Positions 895 to 21,208 of a stretch of DNA of 64,000 nt are shown here, piece by piece. The notes below the pieces were generated by a model, which was given only the letters and a program-made list of their open reading frames with translations, had not been told where the DNA came from and searched no databases. Position numbers and translations under genes: made by a program. The DNA is taken from positions 53,156 through 117,155 of the forward strand of contig DASYEH010000014.1 of assembly GCA_036499125.1 (NCBI GenBank), in the 5' to 3' direction. Origin of the DNA: Gemmatimonadales bacterium. GTDB taxonomy: Bacteria > Gemmatimonadota > Gemmatimonadetes > Gemmatimonadales > GWC2-71-9. Each line of letters starts with the position of its first letter. Position 1 is the first letter of the stretch.

Positions 895-970
895 TCATAG
901 GAAATGGGCTGAGGGACGGGCGTCCGGATACCCTCCGGCGAACGTCCCCACATCCACCCGGGCGCAGGTG

Positions 971-1011
971 TTTGCCGTATCCGGCAAATCAGGTGACCTC
1001 GTGACGAGGTC
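971..1011. promoter_or_regulatory. Two palindromes immediately upstream of the XRE gene (candidate operators)
   Basis: TTTGCC-gtatcc-GGCAAA at 971-988. Perfect GACCTCG-TGA-CGAGGTC at 995-1011, 6-27 nt before the possible start codons at 1017/1023/1038. Confidence 0.3.
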
Positions 1012-1016
1012 GCGGG

Positions 1017-2417: not shown

Positions 2418-2617
2418 TGGACTGTCCTCAGAAAGACGGTGAGTGTGGCGGCCGGCGCTATTTCCGCCCAGCGTTTTCCGGCTAGGGCGGCTGACCCGCC
2501 ATCTGGATTGGTGCCAGGCCTTCACGTTTAGGGGGACCGGGCGTATGATCCAGCGTGTACTAAAACAAATCGCACAAGATTTCGCACAGACGTTACTACG
2601 GCGCCAGGGCCCTGTCA

Positions 2618-2995: not shown

Positions 2996-3094
2996 TCGAG
3001 CGACTCTACCGTCATGCGGGAGTGATCATTCCCGCCAGGCAGACAAGAAGCCTTCGCTGGGTCACGCACACTATTGCCTTATCGCACCAGACGA

Positions 3095-3526
3095 TCATGG
3101 CAAATACTTCGGGCTTGCGATCCGTTGCACGTTAGCCCATGTCCATTCAAGTATGGTAGTTAGGCCAGCAACGGTCGACAAATCCTTGGAGCGGTTCGAT
3201 CGCAGCCCGATCACTGGAAAGTCCTTTGCCTGCAGACGCATCACCAGGTCGGCAACGCTGTCGGGCATCGATTTGCCTCCTTCAATCAGGACAACTGCGA
3301 AGTTGCAATCGGTCCAACGCTGATCACGGTCGACCTCAGCAAACGAGACGGTACTACAGAGTCTGCTAATGTGGAACAGGCCATTCTTACTCGCAGCTTG
3401 GGCTTCGAGCAGGTCGGCGAAACGCGCGTGTTCTGGGCTATAAATGACGAGCAGCCGTTTCACGTCTGATTCCTTATCATCGAGGGTTAGAATGGTGCAG
3501 GAGACCTCTGCCTTGACAATAACCAT
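3095..3526 (-). CDS. Hypothetical protein, possibly a degenerate receiver-like domain
   Basis: KRLLVIY...FAVVLIEGGKSMPDSVADLVMRLQAKDFPVIGLRSN resembles a CheY-like receiver but has Glu where the phospho-Asp would sit. The locus is low-GC. The N-terminal extension to 3691 is antisense to the transposase relic and was discarded. Confidence 0.3.
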   Translation of the reverse strand: MVIVKAEVSCTILTLDDKESDVKRLLVIYSPEHARFADLLEAQAASKNGLFHISRLCSTVSFAEVDRDQRWTDCNFAVVLIEGGKSMPDSVADLVMRLQAKDFPVIGLRSNRSKDLSTVAGLTTILEWTWANVQRIASPKYLP

Positions 3527-3596
3527 GGTTGCCTGGTTCGGCAGCCGACGCCGAAATGCCCAAACGTCAGCTGAAGTAGGGACGTATCTGCTCCGG

Positions 3597-4060
3597 ATTG
3601 ATCGCTCTCGGTTCGCAGGAGCGATGGACGATGGACTTTGTGTAGATCCGATGGCCGATGGTCGGCCGTTTCGGATGCTCACCGTGGTCAATCAGCGCAG
3701 TCGCTCCGGTCCGATCCTGGAGGCTGCCTTTTCGATCCGCGAACAGGACGTGGCGGCGGCGCTCGATCAGACGATCGCGATGCACGGCGCTCCGCGATCG
3801 ATCACCGTCGATCACGGCGCAGAGTGAGTGGGGCGTGCTGGGACTCTACAAGGCGCGGCGACCTCACGGATACCAGCCACATTGAGGTTATAATTGTCGG
3901 TTGTCCGGGATAGGTGCCTCAACGTCCACCAGTTCATGTCACCGACCGATGCGCGGGCGAAGGCGGGGGATTGTTGATGTGATTCTAATCAGGTCCGGCC
4001 ATACAGCTCGCTCGGTTACCTGACCCCCGTCAAGTGCGGAAGTCCATCAGGAAAAAGGAA
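3597..4060 (+). pseudogene. IS3-family transposase (OrfB / rve integrase core) relic
   Basis: AMDDGLCVDPMADGRPFRMLTVVNQRSR...GAPRSITVDHGAE matches the WAMDF..DGR.FR.LTVVD.FSR...G.P..I.VDNG.EF pattern. A stop at 3825 and roughly 50 missing codons follow. Then FMSPTDARAKAGDC*CDSNQVRPYSSLGYLTPV with an in-frame TGA at 3975. No intact ends or OrfA were seen. Confidence 0.7.
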
Positions 4061-4349
4061 TCGCGGAAGCGCGATCACTTTACGCCCACCTGCCGATAAA
4101 CGGGTCAAGTCCATTTTCGGTTGCCGTTACCGCCTGCGGCGCTAACTCGGCGGCTCACGCCCCCGGGTAGCCGCACAGTCGGATCGCGTTTTGTCCACGT
4201 CAGGGCTCCGAGGTTGCCGGTAGATCTCATCTGTAGCCGAAACGAGATTGTTATGAAGATTTCTTCACGATTGATGAACCTTGCGGCGAACTCGGTTACC
4301 GCACTAAAATAGCGTCGTCCCGCTCCCTCCCTCGTCTGCGGAGATCCCT

Positions 4350-4661
4350 TTGAAACGACCGAGCCGAATGGTCCCATCAATCGATTTGCTTCCGCCGCAA
4401 ATGCCCCAAGAGCGCAGGTTGCGGCTGATTCAGGCGCATCTTTGCTGCACTCCGGCACAGGCCAGAATCCTGCTGTGCTGCCCGAGCGGTCGGTCGTGTG
4501 CTGAGATAGCGGCGGAATTGAACCTTGCAGAGGGAACGGTTCGTTCTCATATGCATTCATTTTTCGAGCGGTCGCAATGCTTGGGCAGCAACCACGCGTC
4601 AGGCCTTGTAGCCTCCGTGCTTTGGCAAGTTGCCGCTGGACTCCTTAAGGACCCGGCATAG
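4350..4661 (+). CDS. LuxR/GerE-type HTH protein (HTH-only, possibly a remnant)
   Basis: TPAQARILLCCPSGRSCAEIAAELNLAEGTVRSHMHSFFER fits the LuxR C-terminal HTH pattern (LT..E..VL.L...G.S..EIA..L.IS..TV..H). TTG start. No receiver or ligand domain. Confidence 0.45.
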   Translation: MKRPSRMVPSIDLLPPQMPQERRLRLIQAHLCCTPAQARILLCCPSGRSCAEIAAELNLAEGTVRSHMHSFFERSQCLGSNHASGLVASVLWQVAAGLLKDPA

Positions 4662-5238
4662 ACGGTCTACTACGTGCTAACACTGGATTGCCCTAGAATT
4701 CGCGCGCGCAATCGCCCGGCCCCACTCGGATTGAGTCATATAGCTTCGACTGACGTGAGATGCTCGGGCGCGGAACGGTGTCGTGACGGGCCGTACGATT
4801 GTTCGGCAAATCATATGAACTCTTTCCACGTCCCCGTGCGGTTGGGCGAGATCCGCTTGGTGCGATTCACCGTGAGCATCGTGAAGAAGCGCTCGGTCGT
4901 CGCACTATTCAGACAGTCGGCCGAATGACTCATCTTGCAGGGGAACCCAACCTCGACTCGGCGCTGCGTTTCGAATGGCTCGCAACCTGACTGCCACGCT
5001 CTGAGTGTCGCGCGCGCCGACGCATGCAAAGGTCCGTCACTGCGTCAGGCCGGTGTTGTTCGAGTAATAACGGCCGCAAGGACACGCCCAAATGGACGGC
5101 GACGTATCGCCCCTTTGCTCCGTCAGAGTGTACCATGCGGTCTACACCGATAGGTCTATATCGTTCGGTCGTATTTCATAACAAACGGATATGCGGTAAC
5201 GTTCTATTTCATTCAGGAGCAAAACGCTCGGAGGCAAC

Positions 5239-5922
5239 GTGTCGGATCGCCGTTTAGGTGCACTGATTATACCTGTAGTTCAGGCAATCTGCGTTGTAAT
5301 CGTCACAGTAGCGATCGTTCGCCACGAATTTTTTTCTGCAAACACAAGGCAGTCGATTGCGACCACCAAACTGTCGCAAGCGCAGTGGCGAGGTGTACTA
5401 GCGGGTGGACACTGGATGGGATCACCGAAAGCGCTCGTGACAGTGGTTGAGTTTGGCGATTTTCAATGCCCGGCTTGTCGCGTGTTCAGCACGGTTAGTC
5501 TTCGTGGAGTACGGGCAAAGTACGGAGACAGTGTTGGCGTATTGTTTCGCCATTGGCCACTTGCCTATCATGAACACGCCTATGCGGCTGCCCGGGCGAG
5601 CGAATGCGTTGCAGCGGAAGGCTCATTCGAGCGCTTCTTTGACGCGGTTTACGACAAGCAGGACTCGCTAGGCCTTCGGCCGATCGAGGCGTTTGCACGA
5701 GACGCTGGCGTTCAAGATTCCAGTGCCTTCGCGACGTGCAATGCGAGCAAGCTTCCCGTTGAGGCGATTGAGGTGGATCGCAAAGAGGCGCTCTCTCTCC
5801 ATGGCTCGGGCACTCCAACAATAATCGTTAATGGCGTTCAACTTGGTGGTGTTCCGGACAGCATTGCCTTTGATGAGCTCGTTGGCAAGGCTCTCAAAGC
5901 CGCGATTCGCAACAGCAAGTGA
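5239..5922 (+). CDS. DsbA-family thiol:disulfide oxidoreductase, N-terminally membrane-anchored
   Basis: GTG start with CGGAGG 5-10 nt upstream. TM helix LGALIIPVVQAICVVIVTVAIV. Thioredoxin-fold motif VVEFGDFQCPACRVF (CPAC). C-terminal GSGTPTIIVNG. Confidence 0.8.
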   Translation: MSDRRLGALIIPVVQAICVVIVTVAIVRHEFFSANTRQSIATTKLSQAQWRGVLAGGHWMGSPKALVTVVEFGDFQCPACRVFSTVSLRGVRAKYGDSVGVLFRHWPLAYHEHAYAAARASECVAAEGSFERFFDAVYDKQDSLGLRPIEAFARDAGVQDSSAFATCNASKLPVEAIEVDRKEALSLHGSGTPTIIVNGVQLGGVPDSIAFDELVGKALKAAIRNSK

Positions 5923-5944
5923 CTACCGTCGTGTCTTGTGTCCG

Positions 5945-7108
5945 ATGGAGTCCAACGTGAAACTGCGTGTCGTTATTGGACGCGGTGTTGCGGCCGTCCT
6001 AATCATGGCGTCGTGCAAAGATGACAGCTCTCAATGGAGGCTTGATCTGCCTTCAGGGGTGAGCGAACATGGGCCGCGGGACACAATCGTTGCGCCCCTC
6101 ATGCTAACGGAAGTTCGTCGCATTAGCTTTGACAGCAATGCCTCGCTGTTGACGCCGATGACCGTTAGTGCAAGTGGCGTTGTTGCCGTTTTCGACTACA
6201 CTACGTGCGGATTCTATCTGCTCCAACTCCCCACTGGCGATTCGATCGGTCACGCCGGAAGCTGTGTTCCCGTGAAGCGGTTCGGTCAAGCACGTGGGGC
6301 CTTTTTCCTCGGCGATACTCTTGTCGTCTTCGATGGTCGAACTCACGAGCTCATACGATTCGATCGTATTGGTGATGAGCTTGGCAGAGTCCAAGCGCCG
6401 GGATCGCTAGCCATGACTGGGGCGTTACGAGTAAGCTCGATGAGCGTAGTCGGTGGCGACACCGTTCTCGCCGATCGTGACCTAGCAGCAACGAGTGTCG
6501 ATGGACGGTTGGTCGTATTTACAATGACTAGTGACGGCGCGGTCGCAACGTTTCTCGCCGATGTACCCGGAAGTCGTGCTAATGGAGAGTCTGAGCCGAT
6601 TCTGGGAATCCGTGGCTGCAGCGCGGATTGGAACGGGCGACATCGAATCGTCGCTACGCAGCCGTGGAGTTTTGAAGCGGTTATTTTCGATGAGAAACAC
6701 TCCCCGTTGTGGTCGGTCTATATCCCATTGTCTTGGACGGGCGCCCACCAAGCGCCGGACCATTCACTAGGTGCAGTTTGGCCCAAAGCAACTCTTCGAA
6801 CGCCACTGTGCGGGTCATGGGGAACGCTACTGCGCTTTGGAAGGGTAGACCCTTTCGTGTTTCGGACGTCGACCTATCCGAACGGTGGGCACCTTGAGTT
6901 ATGGGATTCAATCGGGCAACGACGGTTGGCGGTAGACGTTGGCAACGGCCATTCGTATCTATTCGGTGCAGCGGTTACCTGGAAGGATCTCATCGTTTTC
7001 GAGGACGGCGATTCACGGCTTCGCGTTTTTCAGCTCCAACAACTTTCGCAGAGGACTAGCGGGGCGTCCCACAGAGGCAACATTGCCATTCGGGTGCTGC
7101 CCAATTGA
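5945..7108 (+). CDS. Exported beta-propeller lipoprotein (6-bladed-propeller-like family)
   Basis: Start at 5945 gives MESNVKLRVVIGRGVAAVLIMASCKDD (lipobox). Repeated blade-like segments. The C-terminus (LELWDSIGQRRLAVDV...LIVFEDGDSRLRVFQL) parallels the other three propeller paralogues in this window. Confidence 0.6.
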   Translation: MESNVKLRVVIGRGVAAVLIMASCKDDSSQWRLDLPSGVSEHGPRDTIVAPLMLTEVRRISFDSNASLLTPMTVSASGVVAVFDYTTCGFYLLQLPTGDSIGHAGSCVPVKRFGQARGAFFLGDTLVVFDGRTHELIRFDRIGDELGRVQAPGSLAMTGALRVSSMSVVGGDTVLADRDLAATSVDGRLVVFTMTSDGAVATFLADVPGSRANGESEPILGIRGCSADWNGRHRIVATQPWSFEAVIFDEKHSPLWSVYIPLSWTGAHQAPDHSLGAVWPKATLRTPLCGSWGTLLRFGRVDPFVFRTSTYPNGGHLELWDSIGQRRLAVDVGNGHSYLFGAAVTWKDLIVFEDGDSRLRVFQLQQLSQRTSGASHRGNIAIRVLPN

Positions 7109-7248
7109 AACGTCGGAAGCTGCAAAGCTGGGTTTGGCGCGCTGCAGTGGCGCCAATGATGTGGCGGGCAGAGTTTGACGTCCGCTAGCAGGCGCGACCA
7201 ACGGAAATCCGTCCGTTTCGCGAGTCAGACCAAAGCATCGGAGGGGTT

Positions 7249-7500
7249 GTGAAAGCGCTGATTGCGAAGGTTTTGGTGCCCGCGTTTTTTGCGGTTGCAG
7301 TTGTCATGGTGTATTCTCCAACGCAGGCGGTTGCGCGAGAGACTGGCGGGTCGTACTGCGGTGGGGTACCCTCGAACGGCTGTTGCGATTGCGACGGAGG
7401 AGTTGCCGGAAACTCTTGTGAAGCGAACAATGACTCGGGATATTTTGAATGCAGTTCGTCAGGCTGCCCAACCGTGCAGGCGAAATGTAAAGTCAACTGA
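7249..7500 (+). CDS. Small secreted cysteine-rich protein (83 aa precursor, 8 Cys in a ~54-aa mature part)
   Basis: GTG at 7249 preceded by GGAGGGG (7240-7246). Signal peptide MKALIAKVLVPAFFAVAVVMVYSPTQAVA. Mature ETGGSYCGGVPSNGCCDCDGGVAGNSCEANNDSGYFECSSSGCPTVQAKCKVN. Followed by a perfect terminator. Confidence 0.6.
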   Translation: MKALIAKVLVPAFFAVAVVMVYSPTQAVARETGGSYCGGVPSNGCCDCDGGVAGNSCEANNDSGYFECSSSGCPTVQAKCKVN

Positions 7501-7507
7501 CTGCTGT

Positions 7508-7543
7508 GAGACACGGCCGGACTAAATTGGCCGGCCGTGTCTC
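7508..7543 (+). terminator. Intrinsic terminator hairpin after the Cys-rich peptide gene
   Basis: Perfect 13-bp stem GAGACACGGCCGG / CCGGCCGTGTCTC with a 10-nt loop, followed by the T-rich AAGTATTTGTT. It begins 8 nt after the stop codon. Confidence 0.75.
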
Positions 7544-7600
7544 AAGTATTTGTTCGAAACGACCGATATACTTCAGACCATCCGCAATATCCCTATATGC

Positions 7601-8833
7601 ATGGAGTCATACGTGATGTTGATCTCATGGCCTGATCGGTTCCGGCAATTGATCGCTGTTTCAGTATTACTGCTCACTGTCTTCCGCGGCGGCAGCGCAC
7701 AGTCACGCGGTCGCCAAACGAGGGTGATTCGCGGGGACACCATCGTGGCACATTTGCCGAACGTTGGCCGGTGGGGGCCGCCACGGGTTGCAACTCCGCT
7801 TCCGCAAAGCGCTCAACAGCTTGCGCAGGAATTCGGCAATGTGACCGGTTTGGCAGCATTGCCAAATGGCGGTGTGCTGGCTTTCGACGCAGGTGGTCAG
7901 TCGGGGCCCTCACTCCTAGAGTTTGATTCCGCCGGGAGATTTGTAAAGACGATTGGGCGGGAAGGGGCTGGTCCGGGCGAATACACTCATCGCGCAGGTG
8001 ATATCGCGGTTGCTGGAAATGGGCAGATATTTCTCCGCGATGGCGTCCATGGGAGGATCAATCATTACGATCGTGATGGGAGGCTACTAGGTACAATCAC
8101 TTCATCGGCAATTCTGCCGATTTTCAAGGGCATGTCACCCCAGGAAGACGGCTCTGTGTTTGTCCTTTCTCCCGGCCTTGGGACTGGTGAAGATGCACCA
8201 ACGATGAGTCATTTCTCGCCCAGCGGAGCCCTAATCGAGGTGCGATCCCCGCCAGTCCAACCATATTCCACGGTGATCTATGGTGGACCGTTTCTACCTT
8301 TTTCGGCATGGACAATCCTACAAAATGGACGGACGGTCTCAGTTAGGTCAGACCGAGCTGGAATACTTCTGAGTCCTGCTCATGGGAGCCACACGTTTAG
8401 GTTGACAGAGATTGAAAGTCAGGCTGAACGTTTTTTCCCGGCTGAGCGCGCTGAAATGCAAGCGCAAATCGATTGGTACGTCAAATATGACCCTCGTGAT
8501 ATGCCGATCAGGACGGTCGTACCTTCAGTCAAACAGTTCATTATATCTCTGGCGGTTGATGTGAACAACAGGATCTGGGTTCGCCGGACTGGTGTATCAA
8601 TCAAGAGTGCTGAAGGCATTCCTTTGCCCAAGCCGAACGAACCACCGCTTGTTACATACAAGGAGCCATGGATATTCGATGGATTCACAGCCGAGGGTGA
8701 TTTTTTGGGAGAGGTCCGTTTTCCCTCAAATATAGTTCGAGTTTCAATTGCCAACGATATTGCGTGGGCTATCGTTACGAATGTCAATGACGAGCAATCG
8801 CTAGTAAGATTCCGACTGCCAGCCGGACAATAA
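7601..8833 (+). CDS. Exported beta-propeller protein (GAGPGE-motif 6-bladed-propeller-like family)
   Basis: Start taken at ATG 7601 (7616 is also possible; TTG 7550 abuts the terminator). Signal peptide LIAVSVLLLTVFRGGSAQ. IGREGAGPGEYTHRAGDIAVAGNGQIFLRD and repeated blade motifs. C-terminal IWVRR...VRFPSN...LVRFRL is shared with the paralogues. Confidence 0.65.
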   Translation: MESYVMLISWPDRFRQLIAVSVLLLTVFRGGSAQSRGRQTRVIRGDTIVAHLPNVGRWGPPRVATPLPQSAQQLAQEFGNVTGLAALPNGGVLAFDAGGQSGPSLLEFDSAGRFVKTIGREGAGPGEYTHRAGDIAVAGNGQIFLRDGVHGRINHYDRDGRLLGTITSSAILPIFKGMSPQEDGSVFVLSPGLGTGEDAPTMSHFSPSGALIEVRSPPVQPYSTVIYGGPFLPFSAWTILQNGRTVSVRSDRAGILLSPAHGSHTFRLTEIESQAERFFPAERAEMQAQIDWYVKYDPRDMPIRTVVPSVKQFIISLAVDVNNRIWVRRTGVSIKSAEGIPLPKPNEPPLVTYKEPWIFDGFTAEGDFLGEVRFPSNIVRVSIANDIAWAIVTNVNDEQSLVRFRLPAGQ

Positions 8834-8842
8834 CGATATTGG

Positions 8843-9064
8843 TCACCCTGACCACATCCACTCAATGATCGTAGACATGAACTGCGCTTCTGGTCGATTG
8901 TGGCCCGTCTCCCAGTTATTGACGGTGTCCTTCGTTACTCCGAAAATCGTGGCGACGTCCCTCTGGAGCAGCCCGATTTCAATCCGGTGCGCGCGAATCT
9001 GATCACCTAAGTGCTTGACTTGTTTGGGGTAACCAGGCTTCGGGCGGACCGTTCTAAGCCTCAC
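8843..9064 (-). CDS. XRE-family HTH regulator (short PGYPK...LG..IR..R type)
   Basis: PGYPKQVKHLGDQIRAHRIEIGLLQRDVATIFGVTKDTVNNWETGHNRPE. GTG start at 9064, only 13 nt from the comM fragment. Confidence 0.7.
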   Translation of the reverse strand: MRLRTVRPKPGYPKQVKHLGDQIRAHRIEIGLLQRDVATIFGVTKDTVNNWETGHNRPEAQFMSTIIEWMWSG

Positions 9065-9077
9065 CGGTATTTGCGCA

Positions 9078-9563
9078 ATGAATCCCTGCCCATGCGGCTT
9101 CCTGGGTGATCCTTCGCGCGCGTGCAGCTGTGCGCCAGCCGCAGTGCAGCGCTATCACGCCCGGATCTCAGGGCCGCTGCTCGATCGCATCGACATGCAC
9201 TTGCAGGTGCCCCCGGTGGCATACGCCGACCTCGCGTCACGCGCGGCGGGCGAATCGAGTGCGACGGTGCGGAGCAGGGTCGAGGCGGCGCGCGACCGTC
9301 AGCTGCAGCGCTTTCGGCATTGCCCGGGGATCTACGCCAACGCGCACATGGGGCCGCGAGAGTTGTCGCGGTTCGTGAGCATCGATGGCCCGACCGAACA
9401 GGTGCTGAAGAGCGCGATTGCGAAGTTCGGGTTGTCCGCGCGCGCATATCACCGGGTACTCAAGCTGGCGCGGACGCTGGCGGACCTGGCGGGCGTCGAC
9501 GAAATCGCGCCGGTACATGTGACCGAGGCGATTCAGTACCGGGTGCTTGATCGGGGGGAGTGA
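9078..9563 (+). pseudogene. comM: comM/yifB (Mg-chelatase-like AAA+ competence protein), 3' fragment only
   Basis: Begins at the conserved (A)MNPCPCG motif and continues LLDRIDMHLQV...SARAYHRVLKLARTLADLAG...HVTEAIQYR, which is the ComM C-terminus. In-frame stops lie at 9000 and 9030 upstream. About 340 N-terminal codons (the AAA+ core) are absent. Confidence 0.8.
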
Positions 9564-12911: not shown

Positions 12912-15218
12912 ATGCGCCCCTTTCTGTCCAGCCTGTTGTTCACCGCCTCCGTCATGGCGACACCCGGTCCCGGTGGCCCTGGGCGACCCTTCTACGATCG
13001 GCTCCTCGACCGACTCGACTCAACACGCACCTTGGGCGCGTTGCCGCGCCAGGAGTGCCAGCCGCTTGATGCGGCCAATCAGCGTCTCTGCACCGCCTTC
13101 ATTGCCGAGCGGCAGTTGGTTCTCTCTGGCGACCGGACCATTGGCCGCCAGGCGGAGGCGGGCTTTGAGCGCGCGGTGCTTGAGCTCCCCAAGTCAGCAG
13201 TTGCCTGGTACGGTCTCGGGATAGTTCGCATGCAGCTCGCGCAGGACACCGCCTTCTCCCGTGGCGGCGCGGAGATGGGGGTCGGTGTCAGCTATCTCAC
13301 GGGGGCGGTCAACGCCTTCGCCGCAGCGGTTGATCTCGACCCGACATTCGGCAGAGCCGTCGAGGCGCTCGCCCTCTGTCCCATCGGTCGTGATGAAGGA
13401 CGGACGATTGCCAGACGTGTCGCGTTGCTCAGGAAGGTGCGCGCGGCGATTCCCGCGCGCGCAGCGCTTGCCGTCGCAACGGTCGAGCGGAATGGCGGAT
13501 CGATCGACTCGGCACTCGCGCTCGAGCGGCGCGCTCTCCATGCGGCTGTGGTCGATTCGGGCACGGCCTCGCTGGCGCTGGCCCGCGACCTGTACGCTAC
13601 CGGTCGCTCGCAGGAGGGTCGGGATGTCCTGTTGCGTGGAGCAGGCACGCCGACGCCGTTGGCGGCGTCGGCGTATCGCGCCGAGCTGGGATTTGTCGCG
13701 TCGCCGGGCGAATTGACGCAATGGGATAGTCTGCCGCCCGCCCGCCGACCGGCATGGCTCGCCGATTTCTGGCAGAAGCGTGATATCTCCGAAGGGCGAA
13801 ACGATGGTGCTCGACTGGTCGAGCACTATCAGCGGGTGGAGTATGCGCTGAAGCACTTTGCGCTGGTCCTACCGCAAACTGGTCGGCAGCGGATGTTGTC
13901 GTATCTGCCCTCCGGAATGGACATGACGGCCACGGTGCTTGATCGAGCCATGAGCGATCCGAGCTGTGGCAGCGGCGTTGCCCAATACGCACTCCTCGAT
14001 CGCGACCTCGGCTCACATGTCCCATGGCGCGACTACAAGCCGACGCAGGACGAAGTGGATGATCGTGGTGTCATCTGGATCCGTCACGGGCCACCCACCC
14101 GCCGTGCCATCAGCAACGCCACCGAAGCGGCTGAGGTCTGGCAGTATGACCGTGCACCGCACCCGCTCGTGCTCCAGTTTCACGAAGTGCTCTTCAACGG
14201 TATTGGTGCGAGTACGCTGGTGTCGACCCTGGTGACGATGCCGGCGGCCACGCGCTTGCAACTGTGCGGCGTGGAGTACACGCTCTGCATTCCGGGAGAT
14301 GATGTTGCTGCCCTCGCCATGCGAAAGCAGGTCACGTCTCGCAATGTTTGCTCACTCGCAGCAGCCGTTGTCCCTGTGGCCGCCGAGGAGATTCGCCGCG
14401 ATCATGACGCCGGCCTGGTGGCGCTGCATGCGGCAACCACGACGGACTCATACACGCGTGACTTTGCCAAGGCGCTGCGCCCGGGCGTGCAGATGCTCGG
14501 CTTGGCACGCACGGAGGCGGGGCAGCAGCCCGAGCTGGTGGTCGCGTATGCGCTGCCCGGCGAACAGCTTGCGGCGACTCGATCGGGAGGCCGGACGACG
14601 TACAAGGTGCAGCTCCACCTCCTGGCGTCGCGGTTCGACGGGTCGCGCGTCGATCTCGATACGGCGGTCACCTTTCAGGTGGACTCCGCGCTCGGCCGTG
14701 GGCAGTATCTCAACGGACTCCTGCCGATGGCACTTCCGCGCGGAGCGTATCACGTCAGTCTCGTCATCACGCAGCCGGATGGCCGTGGCGCCATTGCTCA
14801 TATGGACAATGTGATCCTGCCGGACTGGGCGGGCGGACCGCTGAGCGCCAGCGACGTGGCCTTGGGGGTGCTGAACCACGGTGTGCACTGGAACTCAGGT
14901 CGCAGCAACGTCTGGCTCAACCCGGCGGACACCTTTCAAGAAAACCAACCGGTCGAAGCCTATTTCCAGGTCCACGGGCTGCAGAGCGGTCAGCAGTATG
15001 CGGTGCGCGTCGAGTTGTACAAGGGTGATCCGGTCGCGGGAGCACCGCTGGTCCTGTCGATCGGGACGACGATCCTGGCGACCGGCACGTCGATGGAGAT
15101 CGCCCGGACCCTCGATGTGTCGCGACTCGGCCCCGGCCGCTATCGGATGCAGGCAGTGGTCTCGGCGGGCAGCCAGGTCGTCACGACGGGATCGTGGTTG
15201 ACGGTGGTGCGGCGGTGA
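12912..15218 (+). CDS. GWxTD-domain-like secreted protein (TPR-like N-terminus)
   Basis: WLADFWQKRDISEGRNDGARLVEHYQRVEYALKHFA, then DDRGVIWIRHGPPTRR, follows the GWxTD-domain layout (FW..RD...EY..R..YA..F....(GW.T)DRG..yi.yGPP). The literal GWxTD motif is degenerate. Confidence 0.55.
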   Translation: MRPFLSSLLFTASVMATPGPGGPGRPFYDRLLDRLDSTRTLGALPRQECQPLDAANQRLCTAFIAERQLVLSGDRTIGRQAEAGFERAVLELPKSAVAWYGLGIVRMQLAQDTAFSRGGAEMGVGVSYLTGAVNAFAAAVDLDPTFGRAVEALALCPIGRDEGRTIARRVALLRKVRAAIPARAALAVATVERNGGSIDSALALERRALHAAVVDSGTASLALARDLYATGRSQEGRDVLLRGAGTPTPLAASAYRAELGFVASPGELTQWDSLPPARRPAWLADFWQKRDISEGRNDGARLVEHYQRVEYALKHFALVLPQTGRQRMLSYLPSGMDMTATVLDRAMSDPSCGSGVAQYALLDRDLGSHVPWRDYKPTQDEVDDRGVIWIRHGPPTRRAISNATEAAEVWQYDRAPHPLVLQFHEVLFNGIGASTLVSTLVTMPAATRLQLCGVEYTLCIPGDDVAALAMRKQVTSRNVCSLAAAVVPVAAEEIRRDHDAGLVALHAATTTDSYTRDFAKALRPGVQMLGLARTEAGQQPELVVAYALPGEQLAATRSGGRTTYKVQLHLLASRFDGSRVDLDTAVTFQVDSALGRGQYLNGLLPMALPRGAYHVSLVITQPDGRGAIAHMDNVILPDWAGGPLSASDVALGVLNHGVHWNSGRSNVWLNPADTFQENQPVEAYFQVHGLQSGQQYAVRVELYKGDPVAGAPLVLSIGTTILATGTSMEIARTLDVSRLGPGRYRMQAVVSAGSQVVTTGSWLTVVRR

Positions 15219-16588: not shown

Positions 16589-17056
16589 ATGTCACTTCGT
16601 CTTGCTGGCCTGGCCGCCGGCGTCGTTCTCCTCGCCGGCTGGACCGCCCAGAGCGCCGCCCGGTCGGTCAACTATGTCGCCCGGATGAACGGCGCCCAGG
16701 AAACCCCCGCAAACAACACCAAGGCGACCGGCTCGGCGACGCTGTCGCTTGACGGCACCAAGCTGCACTATTCGGTCGAAGTCCATGACCTGAGCGGGCC
16801 GGCTACTGCCGCGCACATTCACGTTGGCGCGACGGGCGTGGCGGGGCCGCCGGTCTTCACCTTCCCGATCAAGGCCGGTGTCGGGATGAGCGGAAATGTC
16901 TCCGAAGGGACGATCGACCTGACGAGGGACGCCAGCACCGGCGTGTCGGGCGACTCGCTCAAGATCCTGCTCAACAATGGCCACGCCTACATCAACGTCC
17001 ACACCAAGAACTTCCCGGGCGGCGAAATCCGCGGGCAGGTGATGATGAAGCAGTAG
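16589..17056 (+). CDS. CHRD domain-containing secreted protein
   Basis: Signal peptide MSLRLAGLAAGVVLLAGWTAQSAA. MNGAQETPANNTKATGSATL...AAHIHVGATGVAGPPVF...YINVHTKNFPGGEIRGQV is the CHRD signature. Confidence 0.8.
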   Translation: MSLRLAGLAAGVVLLAGWTAQSAARSVNYVARMNGAQETPANNTKATGSATLSLDGTKLHYSVEVHDLSGPATAAHIHVGATGVAGPPVFTFPIKAGVGMSGNVSEGTIDLTRDASTGVSGDSLKILLNNGHAYINVHTKNFPGGEIRGQVMMKQ

Positions 17057-17116
17057 GCGGGCAGGCCGTTTGTATACTGCCAGTACACAAATGTCAGTAA
17101 TTGGTCAGCCGGAAAA

Positions 17117-17141
17117 ACGGGGCGCCTCATTGACGCCCCGT
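17117..17141 (+). terminator. Hairpin downstream of the CHRD gene
   Basis: ACGGGGCG-cctcattga-CGCCCCGT, an 8-bp GC stem 60 nt after the stop. No U-tract, and it abuts the first 21-bp repeat. Confidence 0.45.
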
Positions 17142-17432
17142 GTCGCGGGCCGAACGAGGTGTGTCGCGAGCCGAACGAGGTGTGTCGCGAGGTGAACGAG
17201 GCGCGGTGCGAGCCGAACGCAGCGCGGTGCGAGACGAACGAGGCGCGGTGCGAGACGAACGAGTCGCGAATCGAGTTGAAAAATCCGGAAACGTGTTGAA
17301 CGGGGCGGGGCGCGAGGCGAACGAGGTGTAGCGCGACGTGAACGAGGCGTGGCGCGAGGTGAACGAGGCGTGGCGAGCTCCGAACCAGGTGTAGCGTGAG
17401 GTGAACGACGTGTAGCGCGAGGCGAACGCCGC
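17140..17432. repeat. Two blocks of six head-to-tail 21-bp repeats (consensus about GTGKCGCGAGNYGAACGAGGY)
   Basis: Block 1 at 17140-17265 and block 2 at 17307-17432, each 6 x 21 bp with exact phase, counted base by base. The blocks are separated by the 42-bp AT-core motif. Confidence 0.9.
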
Positions 17433-17626
17433 CGGGATCGAGTTGAAAAATCGGGAAACGAGTTTAAAAGAGCGGGGCGCGACGTGAACGGGCCGAGGCG
17501 CGAGCCTGGCGTCGCCGGGTGCGACGTCAGCGCCGCCGGGCGACTCCCGGTGTCCACTCATCCTGACACAAATTTTCCGGGGAACGAGTTGAAAAATCCG
17601 GAAACGAGTTCAACAGGGCGGGGCGC
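17272..17626. repeat. Dispersed 42-bp motif x3 (CGAGTTGAAAAATCCGGAAACGAGTTCAACAGGGCGGGGCGC)
   Basis: Copies at 17272-17313, 17439-17480 and 17585-17626. The AT-rich core is embedded in GC-rich DNA. Copy 3 carries the inverted repeat GTTGAA...TTCAAC. Confidence 0.85.
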
Positions 17627-17645
17627 AAGTTCAATCGATGCGGGC

Positions 17646-17905
17646 AGTTCGTCCAGTGTCCAGCAGGTCCCTCGCTTCGCTCGGGACGAGGGGTGGGGTC
17701 AGTTCGTCCAGTGTCCAGCGTCCAGCGTCCAGTGTCCGGTGTCCAGCAGGTCCCTCGCTTCGCTCGGGACGAGGGGTGGGGTCGGTTCGTCCAGTGACCA
17801 GCGTCCAGCGTGCGGTGTCTAGCAGGTCCCTCGCTTCGCTCGGGACGAGGGGTGGGGTCGGTTCGTCCAGTGTCCAATGTCCAGTGTCCAACGTCCAACG
17901 CCCCA
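17646..17905. repeat. 3.5 tandem composite units: GTTCGTCCAGTGTCCAGC + (GTCCAGY)n + hairpin AGGTCCCTCGCTTCGCTCGGGACGAGGGGTGGGGTC
   Basis: Units at 17646-17700 (55 bp), 17701-17783 (83 bp) and 17784-17859 (76 bp), plus a partial unit at 17860-17905. Length differences are 28 and 21 bp, i.e. whole heptamers. Each unit contains the stem CCCTCG/CGAGGG. Confidence 0.9.
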
Positions 17906-17912
17906 CGCCCCA

Positions 17913-18836
17913 TCAGCCTCCCCCCGCACGCCTCGGACTCGGCAGCGTGACGGTGTCCGGTCCGCTCCGCAGCAGCCTCAGCCGTCCATGCGCCTGATCG
18001 AGCGACACGACGAAGTTGTCGAGCACCTGGGTGCCGATGTTGGGCTGGTTGGGATAGTCGGGTGGTAACGGCGTGACCGTCAGGAATGGCGTGGGGATGG
18101 TGTACTTGCCGATCACGACATTGCCGCTGAGCTGTCCACCCTGCACATCAATGGTGCCAAACGCCCCGCGCGCCTTGCCGACCGCCCGCAGTCCGCCGTC
18201 AAAGGTCAGTTGGCCCGCCACCGACACGGGAATCCCGATCGAGCCGGAGTTCTGTGTGTCGAGCACACCCACAAAGGCCTTGCCACCGATGTTGATCGGG
18301 ATCCCCCAGAAATCTGCGACCCGACTGAGCGCGAGAATGTCGCGTCCGTTTGCCGCTGGCAACGTGTCGCGCTCCAGGCGGACCTTGTGTCCCGGGTAAT
18401 CCACCGTCAACAGGAGGCCCTGATAGAACGGCAACCCGAGAACACCGTCGATCCCGGGAAAATCAAATGGCAACGCCTCGGCGGGCATGTCATGAAAGGC
18501 GCCGCCGCCGAGCGTGATGGAATCGATGTGGAACTCGCGATCAGTGTCCGGTCCGCCGATTCGGGGGAGCCGCAGCGAATCGGCGAGGCGGCCCGCGATG
18601 CCAATCACCCGCGCGCCGGTCTCGACCAGGAAGTGATACGGCCCGTGGCCGTTGACCATCACGTCGACCATTGCAGTGGCGTTGCGACCGGGTTGCCCGA
18701 CCAGCGGCACCTCGATCACACTCGGCATGACAATCCGACGCGGAGGCGACGAATCGGGTACGTACCGCGGTGCGGTTTGCGCACCCAGGGCAACAGCGGT
18801 GGTGCAGCATGTGAATGCCAACAGAAGAGTGCGCAT
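17913..18836 (-). CDS. Secreted tandem retropepsin-like (clan AA aspartic-protease-fold) protein
   Basis: Start at 18836 gives the signal peptide MRTLLLAFTCCTTAVALGAQ. Lobe 1: MVNGHGPYHFLVETGARV...IDGVLGLPFYQGLLLTVDY. Lobe 2: INIGGKAFVGVLDTQNSGSI...IGTQVLDNFVVSLDQ. Confidence 0.6.
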   Translation of the reverse strand: MRTLLLAFTCCTTAVALGAQTAPRYVPDSSPPRRIVMPSVIEVPLVGQPGRNATAMVDVMVNGHGPYHFLVETGARVIGIAGRLADSLRLPRIGGPDTDREFHIDSITLGGGAFHDMPAEALPFDFPGIDGVLGLPFYQGLLLTVDYPGHKVRLERDTLPAANGRDILALSRVADFWGIPINIGGKAFVGVLDTQNSGSIGIPVSVAGQLTFDGGLRAVGKARGAFGTIDVQGGQLSGNVVIGKYTIPTPFLTVTPLPPDYPNQPNIGTQVLDNFVVSLDQAHGRLRLLRSGPDTVTLPSPRRAGGG

Positions 18837-18838
18837 CG

Positions 18839-20413
18839 CTAGAACCGATCGGCGCGCGCCGTGCGCCACGCCTGGCCCAGCGAGCCGCCCACCGAATCGG
18901 TCAGCAGCGCTCCGGGCTCTGTCTCTGGATAGATCTCGTGGTAGCTCCGGACCTCGCCTGAACCAACTCGCTTCATCACATACCACGGCTTGAGTTCGCT
19001 GGTCGTCGACAGCCCTGCCGCTCCAAGGACCTCGAGATAACTCTTCACCGTCTCGCGGTGGAAGCGCATCACGCGCACCGATTTGTCGGTGACATCAAGT
19101 CCGCGCACCAGTTCGGGATCCTGCGTGGCAACGCCGGTGGGGCAGCGATTGGTGTTGCAGCGCAGCGCCTGGATGCAGCCGATGGCAAACATCATCGCTC
19201 GCGCGGCGTTGCACATGTCGGCGCCAAGCGCCACCTTGGTCGCGATCTGGAAGCCGGTGTTGACCTTGCCTGACGCGATGATGCGGATCCGGTCGCGAAG
19301 CCCCGCGCCAACCAGCGCGTAGTGGATAAACGACAACCCTTCATTGAGGGGTGTGCCAACCGAATCGGAAAACTCCATTGGCGCGGCCCCGGTGCCACCT
19401 TCGCCACCATCAACCGTGATGAAATCGGGCATGATTCCGGTTTCGAGCATCGCCTTGACGATCCCCAGGAACTCATGCCGCTTGCCGACGCAGAGCTTGA
19501 AGCCGACCGGCTTGCCGCCCGAGGCTCGACGCAAGTCGGCGACGAATTGGATCAGGCCCAATGGTGTGCTGAACGCCGAGTGGGCTGGCGGCGAGATCAC
19601 GTCGACGCCAGGTGTCACACCGCGAATGGCGACGATCTCCGGCGTCAGCTTGGCTGCGGGGAGGATGCCGCCATGCCCCGGCTTGGCGCCCTGCGACAGC
19701 TTGATCTCGACCATGCGCACGTTGGGCAGCACGGCGCGCTTGGTGAACTCATCGAGAGAAAAGTGCCCGTCAGGCGTGCGGCAACTGAAGTAGCCGGTGC
19801 CGATCTGCCAGATGATGTCGCCGCCGGGCTCGAGATGATACGGCGAGAGGCCGCCTTCACCGGTGTTGTGTGCGAAGCCGCCAAGCTGCGCGCCGCGATT
19901 GAGGGCGAGCACGGCGTTCTTGCTGAGCGAACCGTAGCTCATCGCCGACACGTTGAACACCGACGCCGAGTACGGTTGGGTGCAATCCTTGCCACCGACC
20001 ATCACGCGCGAGTTACCCGGGTCGGGGTGCACCGGCGCGAGAGAGTGGTTGATCCACTCGTACCCGGTGGCGTAGACATCGCGCTGGGTGCCGAAGGGGA
20101 GGGTGTCGAGTTCACCCTTGGCGCGCTGGTAGACGACTGAGCGATCGTTGCGCGAGAACGGCTTGCCGTCGCTGTTCGATTCAACAAAGTACTGATTGAT
20201 CTCGGGGCGAATGCTCTCGAACAGGTAGCGCGCGTGGCCAACCACCGGAAAGTTGCGGCGCACCGCCTGGCGGCGCTGCAGCATGTCGACTACGCCGAGA
20301 ATGATCACCGGCCCGACCACCACCAGTGCCCAGAAGGCGTTGGGCCAGAACCAGCCGGCGGCGGCGATCAGGCCGAGGGCAAAGGCGGACACGATCAGAA
20401 AGACATTGCGCAT
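18839..20413 (-). CDS. FMN-binding glutamate synthase family protein (GltB domain-2-like), N-terminal TM segments
   Basis: RRNFPVVGHARYLFESIRPEINQYF, LSQGAKPGHGGILP, VDGGEGGTGAAP. Ends 2 nt before the start of the retropepsin-like gene. Confidence 0.85.
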   Translation of the reverse strand: MRNVFLIVSAFALGLIAAAGWFWPNAFWALVVVGPVIILGVVDMLQRRQAVRRNFPVVGHARYLFESIRPEINQYFVESNSDGKPFSRNDRSVVYQRAKGELDTLPFGTQRDVYATGYEWINHSLAPVHPDPGNSRVMVGGKDCTQPYSASVFNVSAMSYGSLSKNAVLALNRGAQLGGFAHNTGEGGLSPYHLEPGGDIIWQIGTGYFSCRTPDGHFSLDEFTKRAVLPNVRMVEIKLSQGAKPGHGGILPAAKLTPEIVAIRGVTPGVDVISPPAHSAFSTPLGLIQFVADLRRASGGKPVGFKLCVGKRHEFLGIVKAMLETGIMPDFITVDGGEGGTGAAPMEFSDSVGTPLNEGLSFIHYALVGAGLRDRIRIIASGKVNTGFQIATKVALGADMCNAARAMMFAIGCIQALRCNTNRCPTGVATQDPELVRGLDVTDKSVRVMRFHRETVKSYLEVLGAAGLSTTSELKPWYVMKRVGSGEVRSYHEIYPETEPGALLTDSVGGSLGQAWRTARADRF

Positions 20414-20461
20414 TCAGGAATGCTCCGGCCGGTGGTTGGCGATCGGTTGGGGGCCCGACTG

Positions 20462-21208
20462 CTAGCGTGGTTCGATGATCTTCTGCAGCGTGAGCGTATA
20501 GCCGCCCGACTTGACCTTGGCCGGCAGGCGGCGCCCGTCGTCCGTGAGCCAGATCAGGGCCTCATTGTCCTTCATGAAAAGGCCGTGCGGCGGATCCTCA
20601 ACGACCGGGTGCAGCACGAGGCACTGGGCGCGAACGTTATCTGGCAGGTCACACAGCTCATGCCGCAGAACGGTGACGGTGACCGGATTGCGATCCGCCT
20701 TGAAGTAGTTGGTGTACTGATAGGTCTTGCCGACTTCGAGCGGGACCGAAGGCAGCCGCAGGAAGTAGAAGAAGGCCACGTCGTCAATTGGCTTCTCCGG
20801 AGTCCGCTGCGTCTGGTTGTCGCGCATGTTCCGGTAGAACCCCGAGTCGGGATAGATACGGAAGTCGTCGTGTCGCGACCAGCCGGTCTGGTCGGCGTTG
20901 TGCACATACCGGTGCGAGACGAAGTCGCTCACCCGCGTCCAGGAGGTCTGGGTGCTGTGGTCGTGGTAGAGCGGCACGGAGATCGTCGTGTTGAGCGTAA
21001 AGCGCCAATAGGGGGTACCGTCGATCGTGTCGATCGCGGCCACCGTGAACGTGAACGCGTGGTTCGCACGGATCGATATGAGGAGCCGCTTGGATCCGCT
21101 GAACTCCAGCGTTTCGCCGACGGCAAACGGTGGGTGCAACTGGGGCGCCGGGAGGTGACTTGCGCTGAGTGCGAGAGCGGCAATGACCTGCGGAACCAGA
21201 GAGACCAT
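20462..21208 (-). CDS. Secreted protein, DUF3108-like
   Basis: Signal-like N-terminus. FAVGETLEFSG... and the C-terminal ALIWLTDDGRRLPAKVKSGGYTLTLQKI resemble the DUF3108 pattern. By-eye call only. Confidence 0.45.
   Translation of the reverse strand: MVSLVPQVIAALALSASHLPAPQLHPPFAVGETLEFSGSKRLLISIRANHAFTFTVAAIDTIDGTPYWRFTLNTTISVPLYHDHSTQTSWTRVSDFVSHRYVHNADQTGWSRHDDFRIYPDSGFYRNMRDNQTQRTPEKPIDDVAFFYFLRLPSVPLEVGKTYQYTNYFKADRNPVTVTVLRHELCDLPDNVRAQCLVLHPVVEDPPHGLFMKDNEALIWLTDDGRRLPAKVKSGGYTLTLQKIIEPR

Follow-up and report, generated by a model that had tools for sequence, protein, structure and literature searches.

What is an array of phased 21-bp repeats doing in the space between two convergent bacterial genes? 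We asked this of a locus from an uncultured Gemmatimonadales bacterium, using a stretch of 64,000 nucleotides (64 kb) that we call the window throughout. A sequence-only reading of the same DNA had placed the repeats in an 856-bp gap, and the coordinates agree: the gap occupies positions 17057-17912, between the stop of a CHRD gene at 17056 and the stop of an aspartyl-protease gene at 17913. The left neighbour (16589-17056, plus strand) encodes a secreted CHRD-domain protein of 155 aa (Pfam CHRD, E 7.5e-30), and the same 155-aa product is called, identical, on two public contigs. The right neighbour (17913-18836, minus strand) encodes a retropepsin-like aspartyl protease (Pfam Asp_protease_2, E 5e-12) that is 100% identical to a Gemmatimonadales bacterium MAG protein (P0001); the public call is 271 aa long, with the ORF open to 18986. 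Besides these two genes, Pfam scans of the neighbours within about 15 kb on either side gave a ComM-like remnant, an ECF sigma/anti-sigma pair, a GltS-like protein, DUF3108, an RND pump and peptidases. The source contig (673,854 bp) carries genes for ribosomal proteins S6, S18, L9 and L25, SMC, Pth and PRPP synthetase, and is a piece of chromosome, not a plasmid or chromid. An island at window positions 1-9000 ends about 7.6 kb off, at a truncated comM-like gene.

The organism was found in one sample only (SRR11833507 / JGI 3300036781), and the Logan assembly of that run (contig L005) served as an independent check on the contig. A metagenome contig invites the explanation that the tract is an assembly artefact, with repeats collapsed or mis-joined in the MAG, and the Logan contig does break in an 80-bp satellite that adjoins the array, which leaves the copy number of that satellite uncertain. 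This is its only break, however; the second assembler is identical over the entire 21-bp array and gives positions 17000-17685 base for base, and the units are 72-95% identical, so that short reads can resolve them. We consider an artefact extremely unlikely.

Anatomy of the compound tract

Tandem Repeats Finder reported a period of 21 at 17151-17268 (5.6 copies, 85% matches, 0 indels) and again at 17310-17428 (5.7 copies, 77% matches, 0 indels), together with a higher-order period of 167 at 17144-17490 (2.1 copies, 76% matches). Set in rows of 21 nt, both blocks resolve into six in-register, head-to-tail units, giving 12 units in total with no indels inside either block. This is the arrangement that the sequence-only reading had described, down to a period of two helical turns. 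Block 1 (17140-17265; consensus GTGGCGCGAGGCGAACGAGGC) has a lag-21 self-identity of 0.86 and block 2 (17307-17432) one of 0.75, and the two are 72% identical in register. Allowing at most one mismatch, the word GCGAGNNGAACGAGG occurs 8 times in the array, compared with 0.33 occurrences expected for the whole window. Three decayed units at 17475-17536 form the beginning of a third higher-order copy, matching the unit consensus at 16/20 (P 0.009), 14/21 (P 0.085) and 12/21 positions (not significant). They are followed at 17537-17584 by non-repeat filler, which holds a small inverted repeat, GTGTC..GACAC, plus AAATTTT, and preserves the 146-bp spacing to the third copy of the motif described below.

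The blocks are punctuated by an A-tract motif whose core, CGAGTTGAAAAATCCGGAAACGAGTT, is found at 17272, 17439 and 17585 and nowhere else in the 64 kb (0 expected). The count of three copies given by the earlier reading stands, while its length of 42 bp gives way to 41 bp occupied. Copy 1 (17266-17306; 41 bp in the 21-nt register, core 17272-17311) carries A5 and A3 tracts 10 bp apart, and copy 2 (17433-17474; core 17439-17478) carries A5, A3 and A4 tracts at 10-bp spacing; copy 3 (17585-17626) shares 92.5% of its positions with copy 1 and 90% with copy 2. Phased A-tracts of this kind are confined to the motif copies. The motif-to-motif spacings of 167 bp (8x21-1) and 146 bp (7x21-1) show that each block shifts the register by 1 nt. 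Within the motif is an internal 21-nt repeat (CGAGTTGAA / CGAGTTCAA), and the whole fills two unit lengths. An origin from two diverged 21-bp units is a suggestion only, because its halves match the unit consensus no better than random 21-mers do (P 0.2-0.8). The three motif copies are 85-92% identical, whereas identity between the blocks has fallen to 72% and the third one is decayed. This higher conservation could reflect selection on the motif, on numbers too small for significance.

Similarity among the units is local. Units 1 and 2, and likewise units 5 and 6, match at 20/21 positions, and neighbours share a mean of 16.9 positions compared with a between-block mean of 15.1. Only units 3 and 9 correspond unit by unit between the blocks, and positional correspondence is not detectable overall (diagonal mean 15.2 vs 15.1), so that duplication of a block is argued only from the motif and the equal unit count. 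We also looked for constraint within the unit. Over the 12 units there are 7 invariant positions, compared with 8.1 expected (P 0.83), no invariant run exceeds 4 (P 0.19), and at least 20 substitution events are spread over 21 positions; position-specific constraint is thus not detectable, an argument for neutrality of low power because it reads an absent signal in 12 short units without an orthologous locus. A CGAG word stands at unit positions 7-10 and another at 16-19, 9 and 12 bp apart and on one face of the helix. The idea that the 21-mer is three fused heptamers was rejected, as there is no distinct 7-bp sub-period: self-identity at lags 7 and 14 is 0.37-0.43, not above that at lags 5, 9, 12 and 16. 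A search for inverted repeats across 17000-18000 found none.

The sequence-only reading had ended the satellite at 17626, and here it fell short. A second, different satellite adjoins at 17650-17896, with three copies of 76-83 bp (~80 bp). In each of them a 35-nt core, GGTCCCTCGCTTCGCTCGGGACGAGGGGTGGGGTC, conserved without a single difference, precedes runs of the heptamer GTCCAGY. The hairpin of this core has no more than ordinary stability as DNA (z -0.7 and +0.1), and nearest-neighbour folding does not support an exceptionally stable GCGAAGC mini-hairpin within it. Tandem heptamers are frequent in intergenic DNA of the source clade, an abundance that may deserve its own survey.

Coding potential and transcription

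The array had been said to be open in all six frames. Across 17140-17432 the minus strand alone is open, in all three of its frames; each plus frame is stopped, by a TGA in block 1, by three TAGs in block 2 or by a stop in the motif. Because of the 1-nt slips, one and the same heptad reading falls into a different minus frame in each block, and the GC3 of the array frames is unlike that of real genes. ORF 17105-17557 had no homologue among 5.8 billion clustered proteins, ORF 17127-17561 gave low-complexity matches only among 1.84 billion representatives, and no Pfam family was found in the repeat-spanning ORFs. The suspicion that ORFs such as 17105-17557 are artefactual was therefore well placed: the stops, the frame slip, GC3 and the absent homologues and Pfam families exclude a real heptad-repeat gene, and the satellite is noncoding.

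Could the array instead be the remains of such a gene, once encoding a coiled-coil-like protein with heptads that read EPNEVCR / ETNEARC in frame +2? Some frames do have the low GC2 and high GC3 of coding DNA, and ExNE heptads are encoded by words of the form GAG NNG AAC GAG both in dozens of ORFs from metagenomes and in a phage tail-fibre-like ORF (L006, ..RETNEEQREKNE..), the one match to the unit dimer in IMG/VR. Codon usage, not homology, accounts for these pattern matches, however. The stops fall in every plus frame, the three TAGs of block 2 among them, the frame slips between the blocks, and we found no flanking non-repeat coding remnants, no Pfam matches and no protein homologues. We regard a decayed gene as very improbable.

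We then considered the array as transcribed DNA. A terminator-like hairpin, CGGGGCGTC-AATGA-GGCGCCCCG then TTTTT, lies at 17113-17140 on the minus strand, abutting the first 21-bp unit; a standard terminator scan missed it owing to the way T residues are counted. The 66-nt minus-strand stretch 17095-17160 that includes it folds as RNA at -30.7 kcal/mol (z -3.8, equalled by 0/200 shuffles). It is the only stem of at least 8 with GC of at least 6 and a T4+ run on either strand of the window, where 0.13 were expected. The hairpin stands 62 bp beyond the CHRD gene, at the edge of the array, and is oriented for minus-strand transcripts, and the tract probably lies within a minus-strand transcript that ends at the hairpin-T5. 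The array itself folds less well than its shuffles on both strands (z +1.7 minus, +2.2 plus), and Rfam yielded nothing, either over the window at gathering score or over 16900-18100 at E<=1; together these rule out a structured RNA. Neither strand of the gap gave a sigma-70-like promoter, and by eye an ECF-type -35 GAAC spacing had no -10 partner, which also disposes of promoters in the motif.

An unstructured RNA would be a different matter. Under this alternative, a functional minus-strand RNA would have the array as its body, whether as a long 3′UTR or as an independent noncoding RNA, and would end at hairpin-U5. Its roughly 15 unstructured, pyrimidine-rich modules (..CCUCGUUCG..) would capture an RNA-binding protein, or Shine-Dalgarno-like GAGG sequences, in the manner of a multivalent sponge or decoy. 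Among hairpins of the intrinsic-terminator type in 64 kb, the only strong one sits where the array ends on the minus strand, and the weak folding of the array RNA from that strand would leave the modules single-stranded and accessible. The strong strand asymmetry of the array (67% purine on the plus strand) and its three stop-free, non-coding-like minus frames point the same way. The promoter and Rfam searches do not, however, and the modules carry no detectable constraint. No homologous array was found elsewhere, so that covariation and conservation lend the RNA no evidence, and the terminator may merely shield the CHRD gene from antisense read-through. We judge a functional RNA rather unlikely.

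Comparison with replicons and dispersed repeats

The sequence-only reading had compared the array with the iterons of plasmid origins and with centromeres such as sopC, and here every replicon feature that we examined was negative. Plasmid iterons (pPS10, F oriS, RK2 oriV) are direct repeats of about 17-22 bp, helically phased and present in 3-7 copies. The array shares their repeat size and helical phasing (12 x 21 bp), and one face of its unit could accommodate two half-sites. It differs in being chromosomal, in lying in a convergent 3′ gap, in having at least 12 copies with higher-order structure and no detected constraint on unit positions, and in having no rep gene, DnaA box or AT-rich element. 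Pfam scans found no Rep, helicase-loader, primase, parA/parB, relaxase or integrase genes within about 15 kb on either side. The DnaA box TTATCCACA, with at most one mismatch, occurs 2 times in 64 kb compared with 4.0 expected, and not in the gap. There is no AT-rich unwinding region, the GC of 200-bp segments over 16900-18100 being about 0.60 or above (lowest 0.595), and no GC-skew switch, the skew being monotonic across the window. Thus, of the features of an iteron origin, the repeat length and phasing are present, while an adjacent Rep gene, DnaA boxes with an unwinding element and a non-chromosomal replicon are all absent.

The centromere comparison gave a similar result. Partition centromeres built from direct repeats include sopC of F, parC of R1 and heptad arrays bound by ribbon-helix-helix proteins, and the 43-bp sopC units each contain an inverted repeat. 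Our locus shares with these centromeres a long array of direct repeats in phase, but it has neither a linked parA/parB operon or ribbon-helix-helix gene nor a conserved binding motif or inverted repeat in each unit; Pfam scans of the neighbours found no ParA/CbiA, ParB or ribbon-helix-helix families. A BLAST search of 72,556 plasmids, and of phage sequence, returned no similarity to the array. The sole plasmid match to its neighbourhood was the adjoining heptamer run, which resembles (GTCCAGT)n in 8 perfect copies upstream of an 'AAA family ATPase' gene on the Phaeobacter plasmid pP75_f. We infer that this ATPase may be ParA-like and that its heptamer array is a possible centromere or operator.

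For the array itself, a role as origin, centromere or DNA-binding site is suggested by geometry alone. Such a cis-acting site might be iteron- or centromere-like, or more generally a docking site for a regulator or a nucleoid protein; the protein would read the two CGAG half-sites of each unit, with the A-tract motifs as intrinsic bends every ~146-167 bp. A 21-bp period kept free of indels in both blocks, CGAG at unit positions 7-10 and 16-19, A5/A3/A4 tracts 10 bp apart and confined to the motif, a motif more conserved than the units and, by analogy only, the ATPase-linked heptamers of pP75_f are all consistent with protein binding. Chance, however, accounts for the invariant positions, and a transcriptional operator would be least expected at a site flanked by two 3′ ends. 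The setting is chromosomal and housekeeping, with no adjacent rep, par or other DNA-binding gene; the absence of DnaA boxes, an AT-rich unwinding element, a skew switch and plasmid or phage similarity also weighs against it. On balance a DNA-binding site seems unlikely.

If the array belonged to a REP-like dispersed family, copies should recur, an outcome that the earlier reading had set as refuting its proposal. We found one locus in the window and 16.5 kb of extra source DNA (~80 kb searched), and there may be a low-copy family elsewhere in the source genome. Across 185,579 species genomes the motif core gave 4 chance matches only, in cyanobacteria and Bacteroidota, and it was absent from IMG/VR. 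The unit-dimer pattern gave 97 loci in a JGI metagenome collection that did not include the source contig, every one of them either a coding ExNE heptad or a satellite, in both cases unrelated. The protease (best homologue 71%) and a 768-aa neighbour (best 54%) have homologues whose gene contexts are unrelated and lack the satellite, the nearest relatives being non-syntenic at 54-71% protein identity. Intergenic satellites are nevertheless present on other GC-rich soil contigs, related and unrelated (L012, 42-bp x10.4, 44-bp and 33-bp; L025, 21/43-bp), which makes such tracts a recurring class.

Stable palindromes define the REP/BIME and BOX families, which number tens to hundreds of dispersed copies. 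Like them, the tract is extragenic at gene 3′ ends, likely transcribed, and modular, joining the 21-bp array and motif to an 80-bp satellite that has a small palindrome at its core. Unlike them, its 21-bp part lacks a palindrome, folds less stably than its shuffles and is single-copy in ~80 kb; neither the many copies nor the stable palindromic unit of a REP/BIME/MITE-like element was found. Cyanobacterial STRR heptanucleotide repeats are mentioned in PMC2670836 and PMC4046671. The GTCCAGY runs, and only these, are like them in being tandem heptamers scattered through intergenic DNA at several loci per genome, but they differ in phylum and in heptamer sequence, and the 21-bp satellite has no clear 7-bp sub-period.

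A closer counterpart is the minisatellite. The MIRUs of mycobacteria are dispersed over about 40 loci per genome, with units of 40-100 bp, and are often translationally coupled to flanking genes. Minisatellites of this type and our array are both intergenic tandem direct repeats of tens of bp in a GC-rich genome, with homogenised neighbours, no protein product and a plausibly co-transcribed location; the array differs in its 21-bp unit, its two levels, its A-tract punctuation and its one locus in about 80 kb. Head-to-tail units of ~10-100 bp, noncoding status and similarity biased towards neighbours are what a minisatellite shows, and all three are seen here.

Origin and meaning of the tract

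We lean towards the view, which we hold to be somewhat probable, that the tract is a locus-specific, noncoding compound minisatellite grown by slippage and unequal exchange, apparently with no dedicated function, and not an origin of replication, a set of plasmid iterons or a centromere for partition. Under this history, replication slippage would have amplified the 21-bp unit, and unequal recombination would then have duplicated an eight-unit block of ~168 bp (six units plus the two-unit-long A-tract motif). Ongoing local slippage would homogenise neighbouring units inside each block, and the third higher-order copy would have decayed. The tract would thereby have come to occupy the space from the protease stop codon to the minus-strand terminator hairpin, and transcription of that strand would produce either an ~800-nt 3′ tail of the protease mRNA or a separate transcript, in both cases running to the hairpin-T5. 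Such a tract may persist because the convergent gap holds no promoter or coding sequence for expansion to damage.

We count several observations against the minisatellite. The motif copies are still 85-92% identical despite the drift of the blocks; phased A-tracts and two same-face CGAG words are what a binding array would show; and only about 80 kb of the source genome was searched. The sole strong terminator, exactly at the array edge, fits better with a dedicated, possibly abundant transcript than with a passive 3′ tail. We speculate that the tract and terminator could together form a dedicated minus-strand noncoding RNA gene, or a DNA scaffold, on which one protein would gather in many copies, drawn by ~15 phased, unstructured 21-nt modules and three bent A-tract motifs. 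We think this quite improbable.

If the tract is a minisatellite, it is ordinary repeat DNA, a further case of satellites accumulating in convergent gaps and a warning that gene callers and origin finders can be misled in GC-rich MAGs; it would also be a potential strain-typing (VNTR) locus. A protein-titrating RNA or DNA scaffold, if real, would matter more. The Gemmatimonadota are an abundant, almost uncultured soil phylum, and we know of no regulatory RNA or nucleoid-organising element in them. The tract would then be a CsrB/CrcZ-style sponge or a chromosomal nucleoprotein array new to the phylum, and the intergenic heptamer arrays of the clade might be a related binding-site system.

Anatomy of the intergenic repeat tract

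An 856-bp gap (17057-17912) separates the CHRD-domain gene (16589-17056, plus strand) from the convergent retropepsin-like aspartyl-protease gene (minus strand, stop at 17913). Along the plus strand, the gap comprises a hairpin (17118-17140), block 1, motif copy 1, block 2, motif copy 2, three decayed units (consensus matches 16/20, 14/21 and 12/21), ~47 bp of non-repeat filler, motif copy 3 and a second satellite (17650-17896) of three 76-83 bp copies, in each of which GTCCAGY heptamers come after a perfectly conserved 35-nt core. Tandem Repeats Finder reported period-21 arrays at 17151-17268 (5.6 copies, 85% matches) and 17310-17428 (5.7 copies, 77% matches), both free of indels, and a higher-order period of 167 across 17144-17490. 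Set out in 21-nt rows starting at 17140 and 17307, the two blocks each resolve into six units in register (consensus GTGGCGCGAGGCGAACGAGGC), and lag-21 self-identity is 0.86 and 0.75 for the two blocks against a background of ~0.3. The motif core CGAGTTGAAAAATCCGGAAACGAGTT, allowing at most one mismatch, occurs at 17272, 17439 and 17585 and at no other site in the window (0 expected), with spacings of 167 (8x21-1) and 146 (7x21-1). These results bear out the two blocks of six phased units, the third motif copy and the 856-bp gap between convergent genes described in the sequence-only reading. That reading also placed a 42-bp motif after each block; three copies were located, but the motif takes up 41 bp of the 21-nt register, and the repeats do not end at 17626 as claimed but go on as a different satellite. 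The structure is real and the description was almost correct. The Logan assembly of the same run (SRR11833507) matches 17000 to 17685 base for base, so the 21-bp array was not created by the assembler, and we consider an assembly artefact exceedingly improbable.

Purines make up 67% of the plus strand across the 21-bp array, where the skew is strong (G>C and A>T). Runs of at least three A/T within 17140-17650 are confined to the three motifs, except for AAATTTT in the filler (17570-17576). The A-tracts in the motifs (A5, A3, plus A4 in copy 2) are 10 bp apart, and A-tracts at this spacing are the classic layout for an intrinsic bend. Every unit carries CGAG at positions 7-10 and 16-19, and the resulting intervals of 9 and 12 bp place the CGAG words on one helix face.

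Replication, partition and repeat-family readings

The iteron origin or sopC-type centromere proposed from the sequence alone was not supported. The source contig (673,854 bp, Gemmatimonadales MAG, JGI 3300036781 Ga0376653_0000026) carries genes for ribosomal proteins S6, S18, L9 and L25, Pth, PRPP synthetase, H+-PPase and SMC, and is therefore chromosomal. Neighbors within ~15 kb are a truncated ComM-like gene, a thiol-disulfide protein, an ECF sigma factor with an RskA-type anti-sigma, two secreted proteins of unknown function, CHRD, the protease, a GltS-like FMN enzyme, DUF3108, an RND efflux pump and peptidases; none is a Rep, ParA/ParB, relaxase or integrase gene. Matches to DnaA boxes were below chance expectation, with none in the gap; GC stays at ~0.60 or above in 200-bp windows with no AT-rich dip, and cumulative GC skew climbs monotonically along the window with no switch. 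BLAST of the gap against 72,556 plasmids matched the heptamer run only, and against 50,697 phages gave no match. Together this confines the analogy to period and phasing; the tract resembles iterons in unit length and phasing only, and it lacks the tested defining features of both iteron origins and partition centromeres.

A dispersed REP-like family had been named as a refutation. Within the window, the 21-mer, motif and 35-nt core are restricted to the gap, and 16.5 kb more source DNA past both window ends held no further copies. Assuming a genome of ~4 Mb, this single locus would argue against a high-copy family, from some 150 copies upward, but a low-copy family is still compatible. In the source DNA searched, the tract also lacks the copy number and palindromes of REP/BIME-type families. 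Across 185,579 species (one genome each) the motif core was absent save for four chance matches in unrelated phyla, and it was absent from IMG/VR. The unit-dimer pattern matched 97 loci in JGI metagenomes and a single viral one; on inspection these were ExNE heptads encoded by GAG-NNG-AAC-GAG codons in unrelated proteins, plus a few unrelated satellites. The lineage is poorly sampled, and no orthologous gap was found for comparison: the closest homologs of the protease (71% identity) and a 768-aa neighbor (54%) lie in other gene contexts with short, repeat-free intergenic regions.

Coding potential, transcription and growth of the tract

All six frames had been called open across the array. 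There are stops in every plus frame, and only minus-strand frames are open; the companion claim that long ORFs such as 17105-17557 are artefactual held up on frames, composition and the lack of homologs. The heptad reading LVRLAPR shifts to different minus frames between blocks through 1-nt slips, and codon-position GC of the long minus ORFs (e.g. 0.72/0.71/0.58) differs from that of real genes here (~0.65/0.49/0.80). ORF 17105-17557 had no homolog in 5.8 billion protein clusters, itself included, which indicates that the public record has no gene call for it. Against 1.84 billion representatives, ORF 17127-17561 matched unrelated low-complexity heptad proteins only (E 2e-9 or worse), and the four repeat-spanning ORFs scanned contained no Pfam family. 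Together the plus-frame stops, frame slips, composition and searches rule out a real heptad-repeat gene, and a decayed one is very unlikely. A structured RNA was also rejected: on either strand the RNA of 17100-17650 is less stably folded than its dinucleotide shuffles (z +1.7 and +2.2), and Rfam gave no match even at E<=1.

The minus-strand hairpin reads CGGGGCGTC-AATGA-GGCGCCCCG, then TTTTT, and the 66 nt around it (17095-17160) fold at -30.7 kcal/mol (z -3.8). In a custom terminator scan (stem of at least 8 pairs, at least 6 of them G-C, then at least 4 T), it was the single site on either strand of the 64-kb window, compared with 0.13 expected in shuffles; generic terminator-like sites in a stock scan were not enriched (6 versus 8.4 expected in 20 kb). 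On the plus strand AAAAA precedes the hairpin and GTGTCGCGGG follows it, making it polar for minus-strand transcripts, and no terminator follows the protease stop codon in the sequence. The simplest inference is that a minus-strand transcript would come from the protease gene or begin at an unrecognised start, cross both satellites and end at 17113-17117. Between the CHRD stop codon and the hairpin lies an AT-rich near-perfect palindrome, TTTGTATAC-TGCCA-GTACACAAA (17066-17092), which looks operator-like and is unusual for this GC-rich genome. A minus-strand RNA that functions through unstructured repeated modules would fit the unique terminator and low structure, but the missing promoter and lack of conservation make it unlikely.

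The 12 core units record at least 20 substitution events across 21 positions, leaving seven unchanged (8.1 expected, P 0.83), and invariant runs reach at most 4 positions (P 0.19); at these chance levels, the "conserved core" is the remainder left by random change. This want of constraint, together with the genomic context, makes a DNA-binding array unlikely despite its geometry and A-tracts. A protein-titrating RNA or nucleoprotein scaffold seems quite improbable. Unit similarity peaks among neighbors (20/21 for units 1-2 and 5-6; neighbor mean 16.9) and is lower between blocks (mean 15.1), with no positional correspondence except units 3 and 9, a pattern we read as the signature of local slippage over an older block duplication. 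Identity among the motif copies is 85-92%, versus 72% between blocks, and copy 3 persists despite its decayed block, which hints at constraint or gene conversion, with counts too small for significance. With moderate confidence, we favor a locus-specific, non-coding compound minisatellite that would have grown through slippage and unequal exchange where two convergent genes leave a promoter-free space, probably inside a minus-strand transcript ending at the hairpin-T5. Bacterial intergenic minisatellites (VNTRs) such as MIRUs are closest in behavior and anatomy, and we assign the tract to the bacterial minisatellites, strain variability being the one further feature that would define a VNTR.

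Other satellites and the source genome

GC falls to 0.57-0.59 over window 1-9563 and 1-7400 of L112, the upstream source DNA, compared with 0.65-0.68 elsewhere. Just past the window start are two large serine recombinase genes; the stretch also encodes XRE-type HTH, NYN-domain and DUF2188 proteins and has a truncated ComM-like Mg-chelatase gene (9078-9563) at its end. It resembles a mobile element that integrated into comM. A Logan assembly of the same run (L113) holds part of it in a different gene order, which suggests strain variants. A pair of paralogous secreted proteins (12912-15218 and 61022-63142), each about 700-770 aa long, match no Pfam family and have motifs such as FWxxRDIxxGR in common; their homologs, where named, seem confined to contigs of Gemmatimonadales type.

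The Gemmatimonadales contigs compared are rich in intergenic arrays of tandem heptamers (4-10 copies), with 13 in about 165-190 kb versus 7 across 494 kb from metagenome loci that are unrelated. They lie at 17651-17900, 42604-42673 and 50024-50085 in the window; at 7155-7182 and 7592-7627 in L110, source DNA ~2 kb past the window end; and, in other compared stretches, at L008 3878-3917, 5567-5635, 5881-5922 and 5959-5989, L108 1722-1754 and 1781-1810, and L007 6984-7014. The arrays occur in convergent, divergent and co-directional gaps, and the heptamer varies among lineages and even inside this genome (TGGACAN/GTCCAGY versus ATGGCTG). The L110 pair (7155-7627), (GGCTGAT)4 and (CAGCCAT)5.1, is the same heptamer inverted, flanking a 113-aa gene of the 23S_rRNA_IVP family (PF05635). 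The arrays recall cyanobacterial STRR repeats, and we know of no description of them in this phylum. An identical heptamer, (GTCCAGT)8, adjoins (GTCGCTT)10 and two 28-bp repeats on Phaeobacter gallaeciensis plasmid pP75_f (NZ_CP010679.1 ~20370-20640; L107 1290-1560), with no annotation beneath, filling the gap between a gene that carries an AAA family ATPase annotation and a ribbon-helix-helix/relaxase pair. These repeats may be a heptad-array centromere or operator, the ATPase being putatively ParA-like, and the shared heptamer may be coincidence.

Two unrelated GC-rich soil and bog contigs carry long intergenic satellites of their own. L012 has intergenic arrays of 42 bp x10.4 (1673-2110), 44 bp x3.3 (3006-3140) and 33 bp x7.9 (13282-13543), and L025 has a 21/43-bp array (~5850-6210) upstream of a gene, with a GGGA..TCCC hairpin in each unit. 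Soil MAGs may carry more intergenic minisatellites whose periods lie close to multiples of 10.5-11 bp than is generally recognized.
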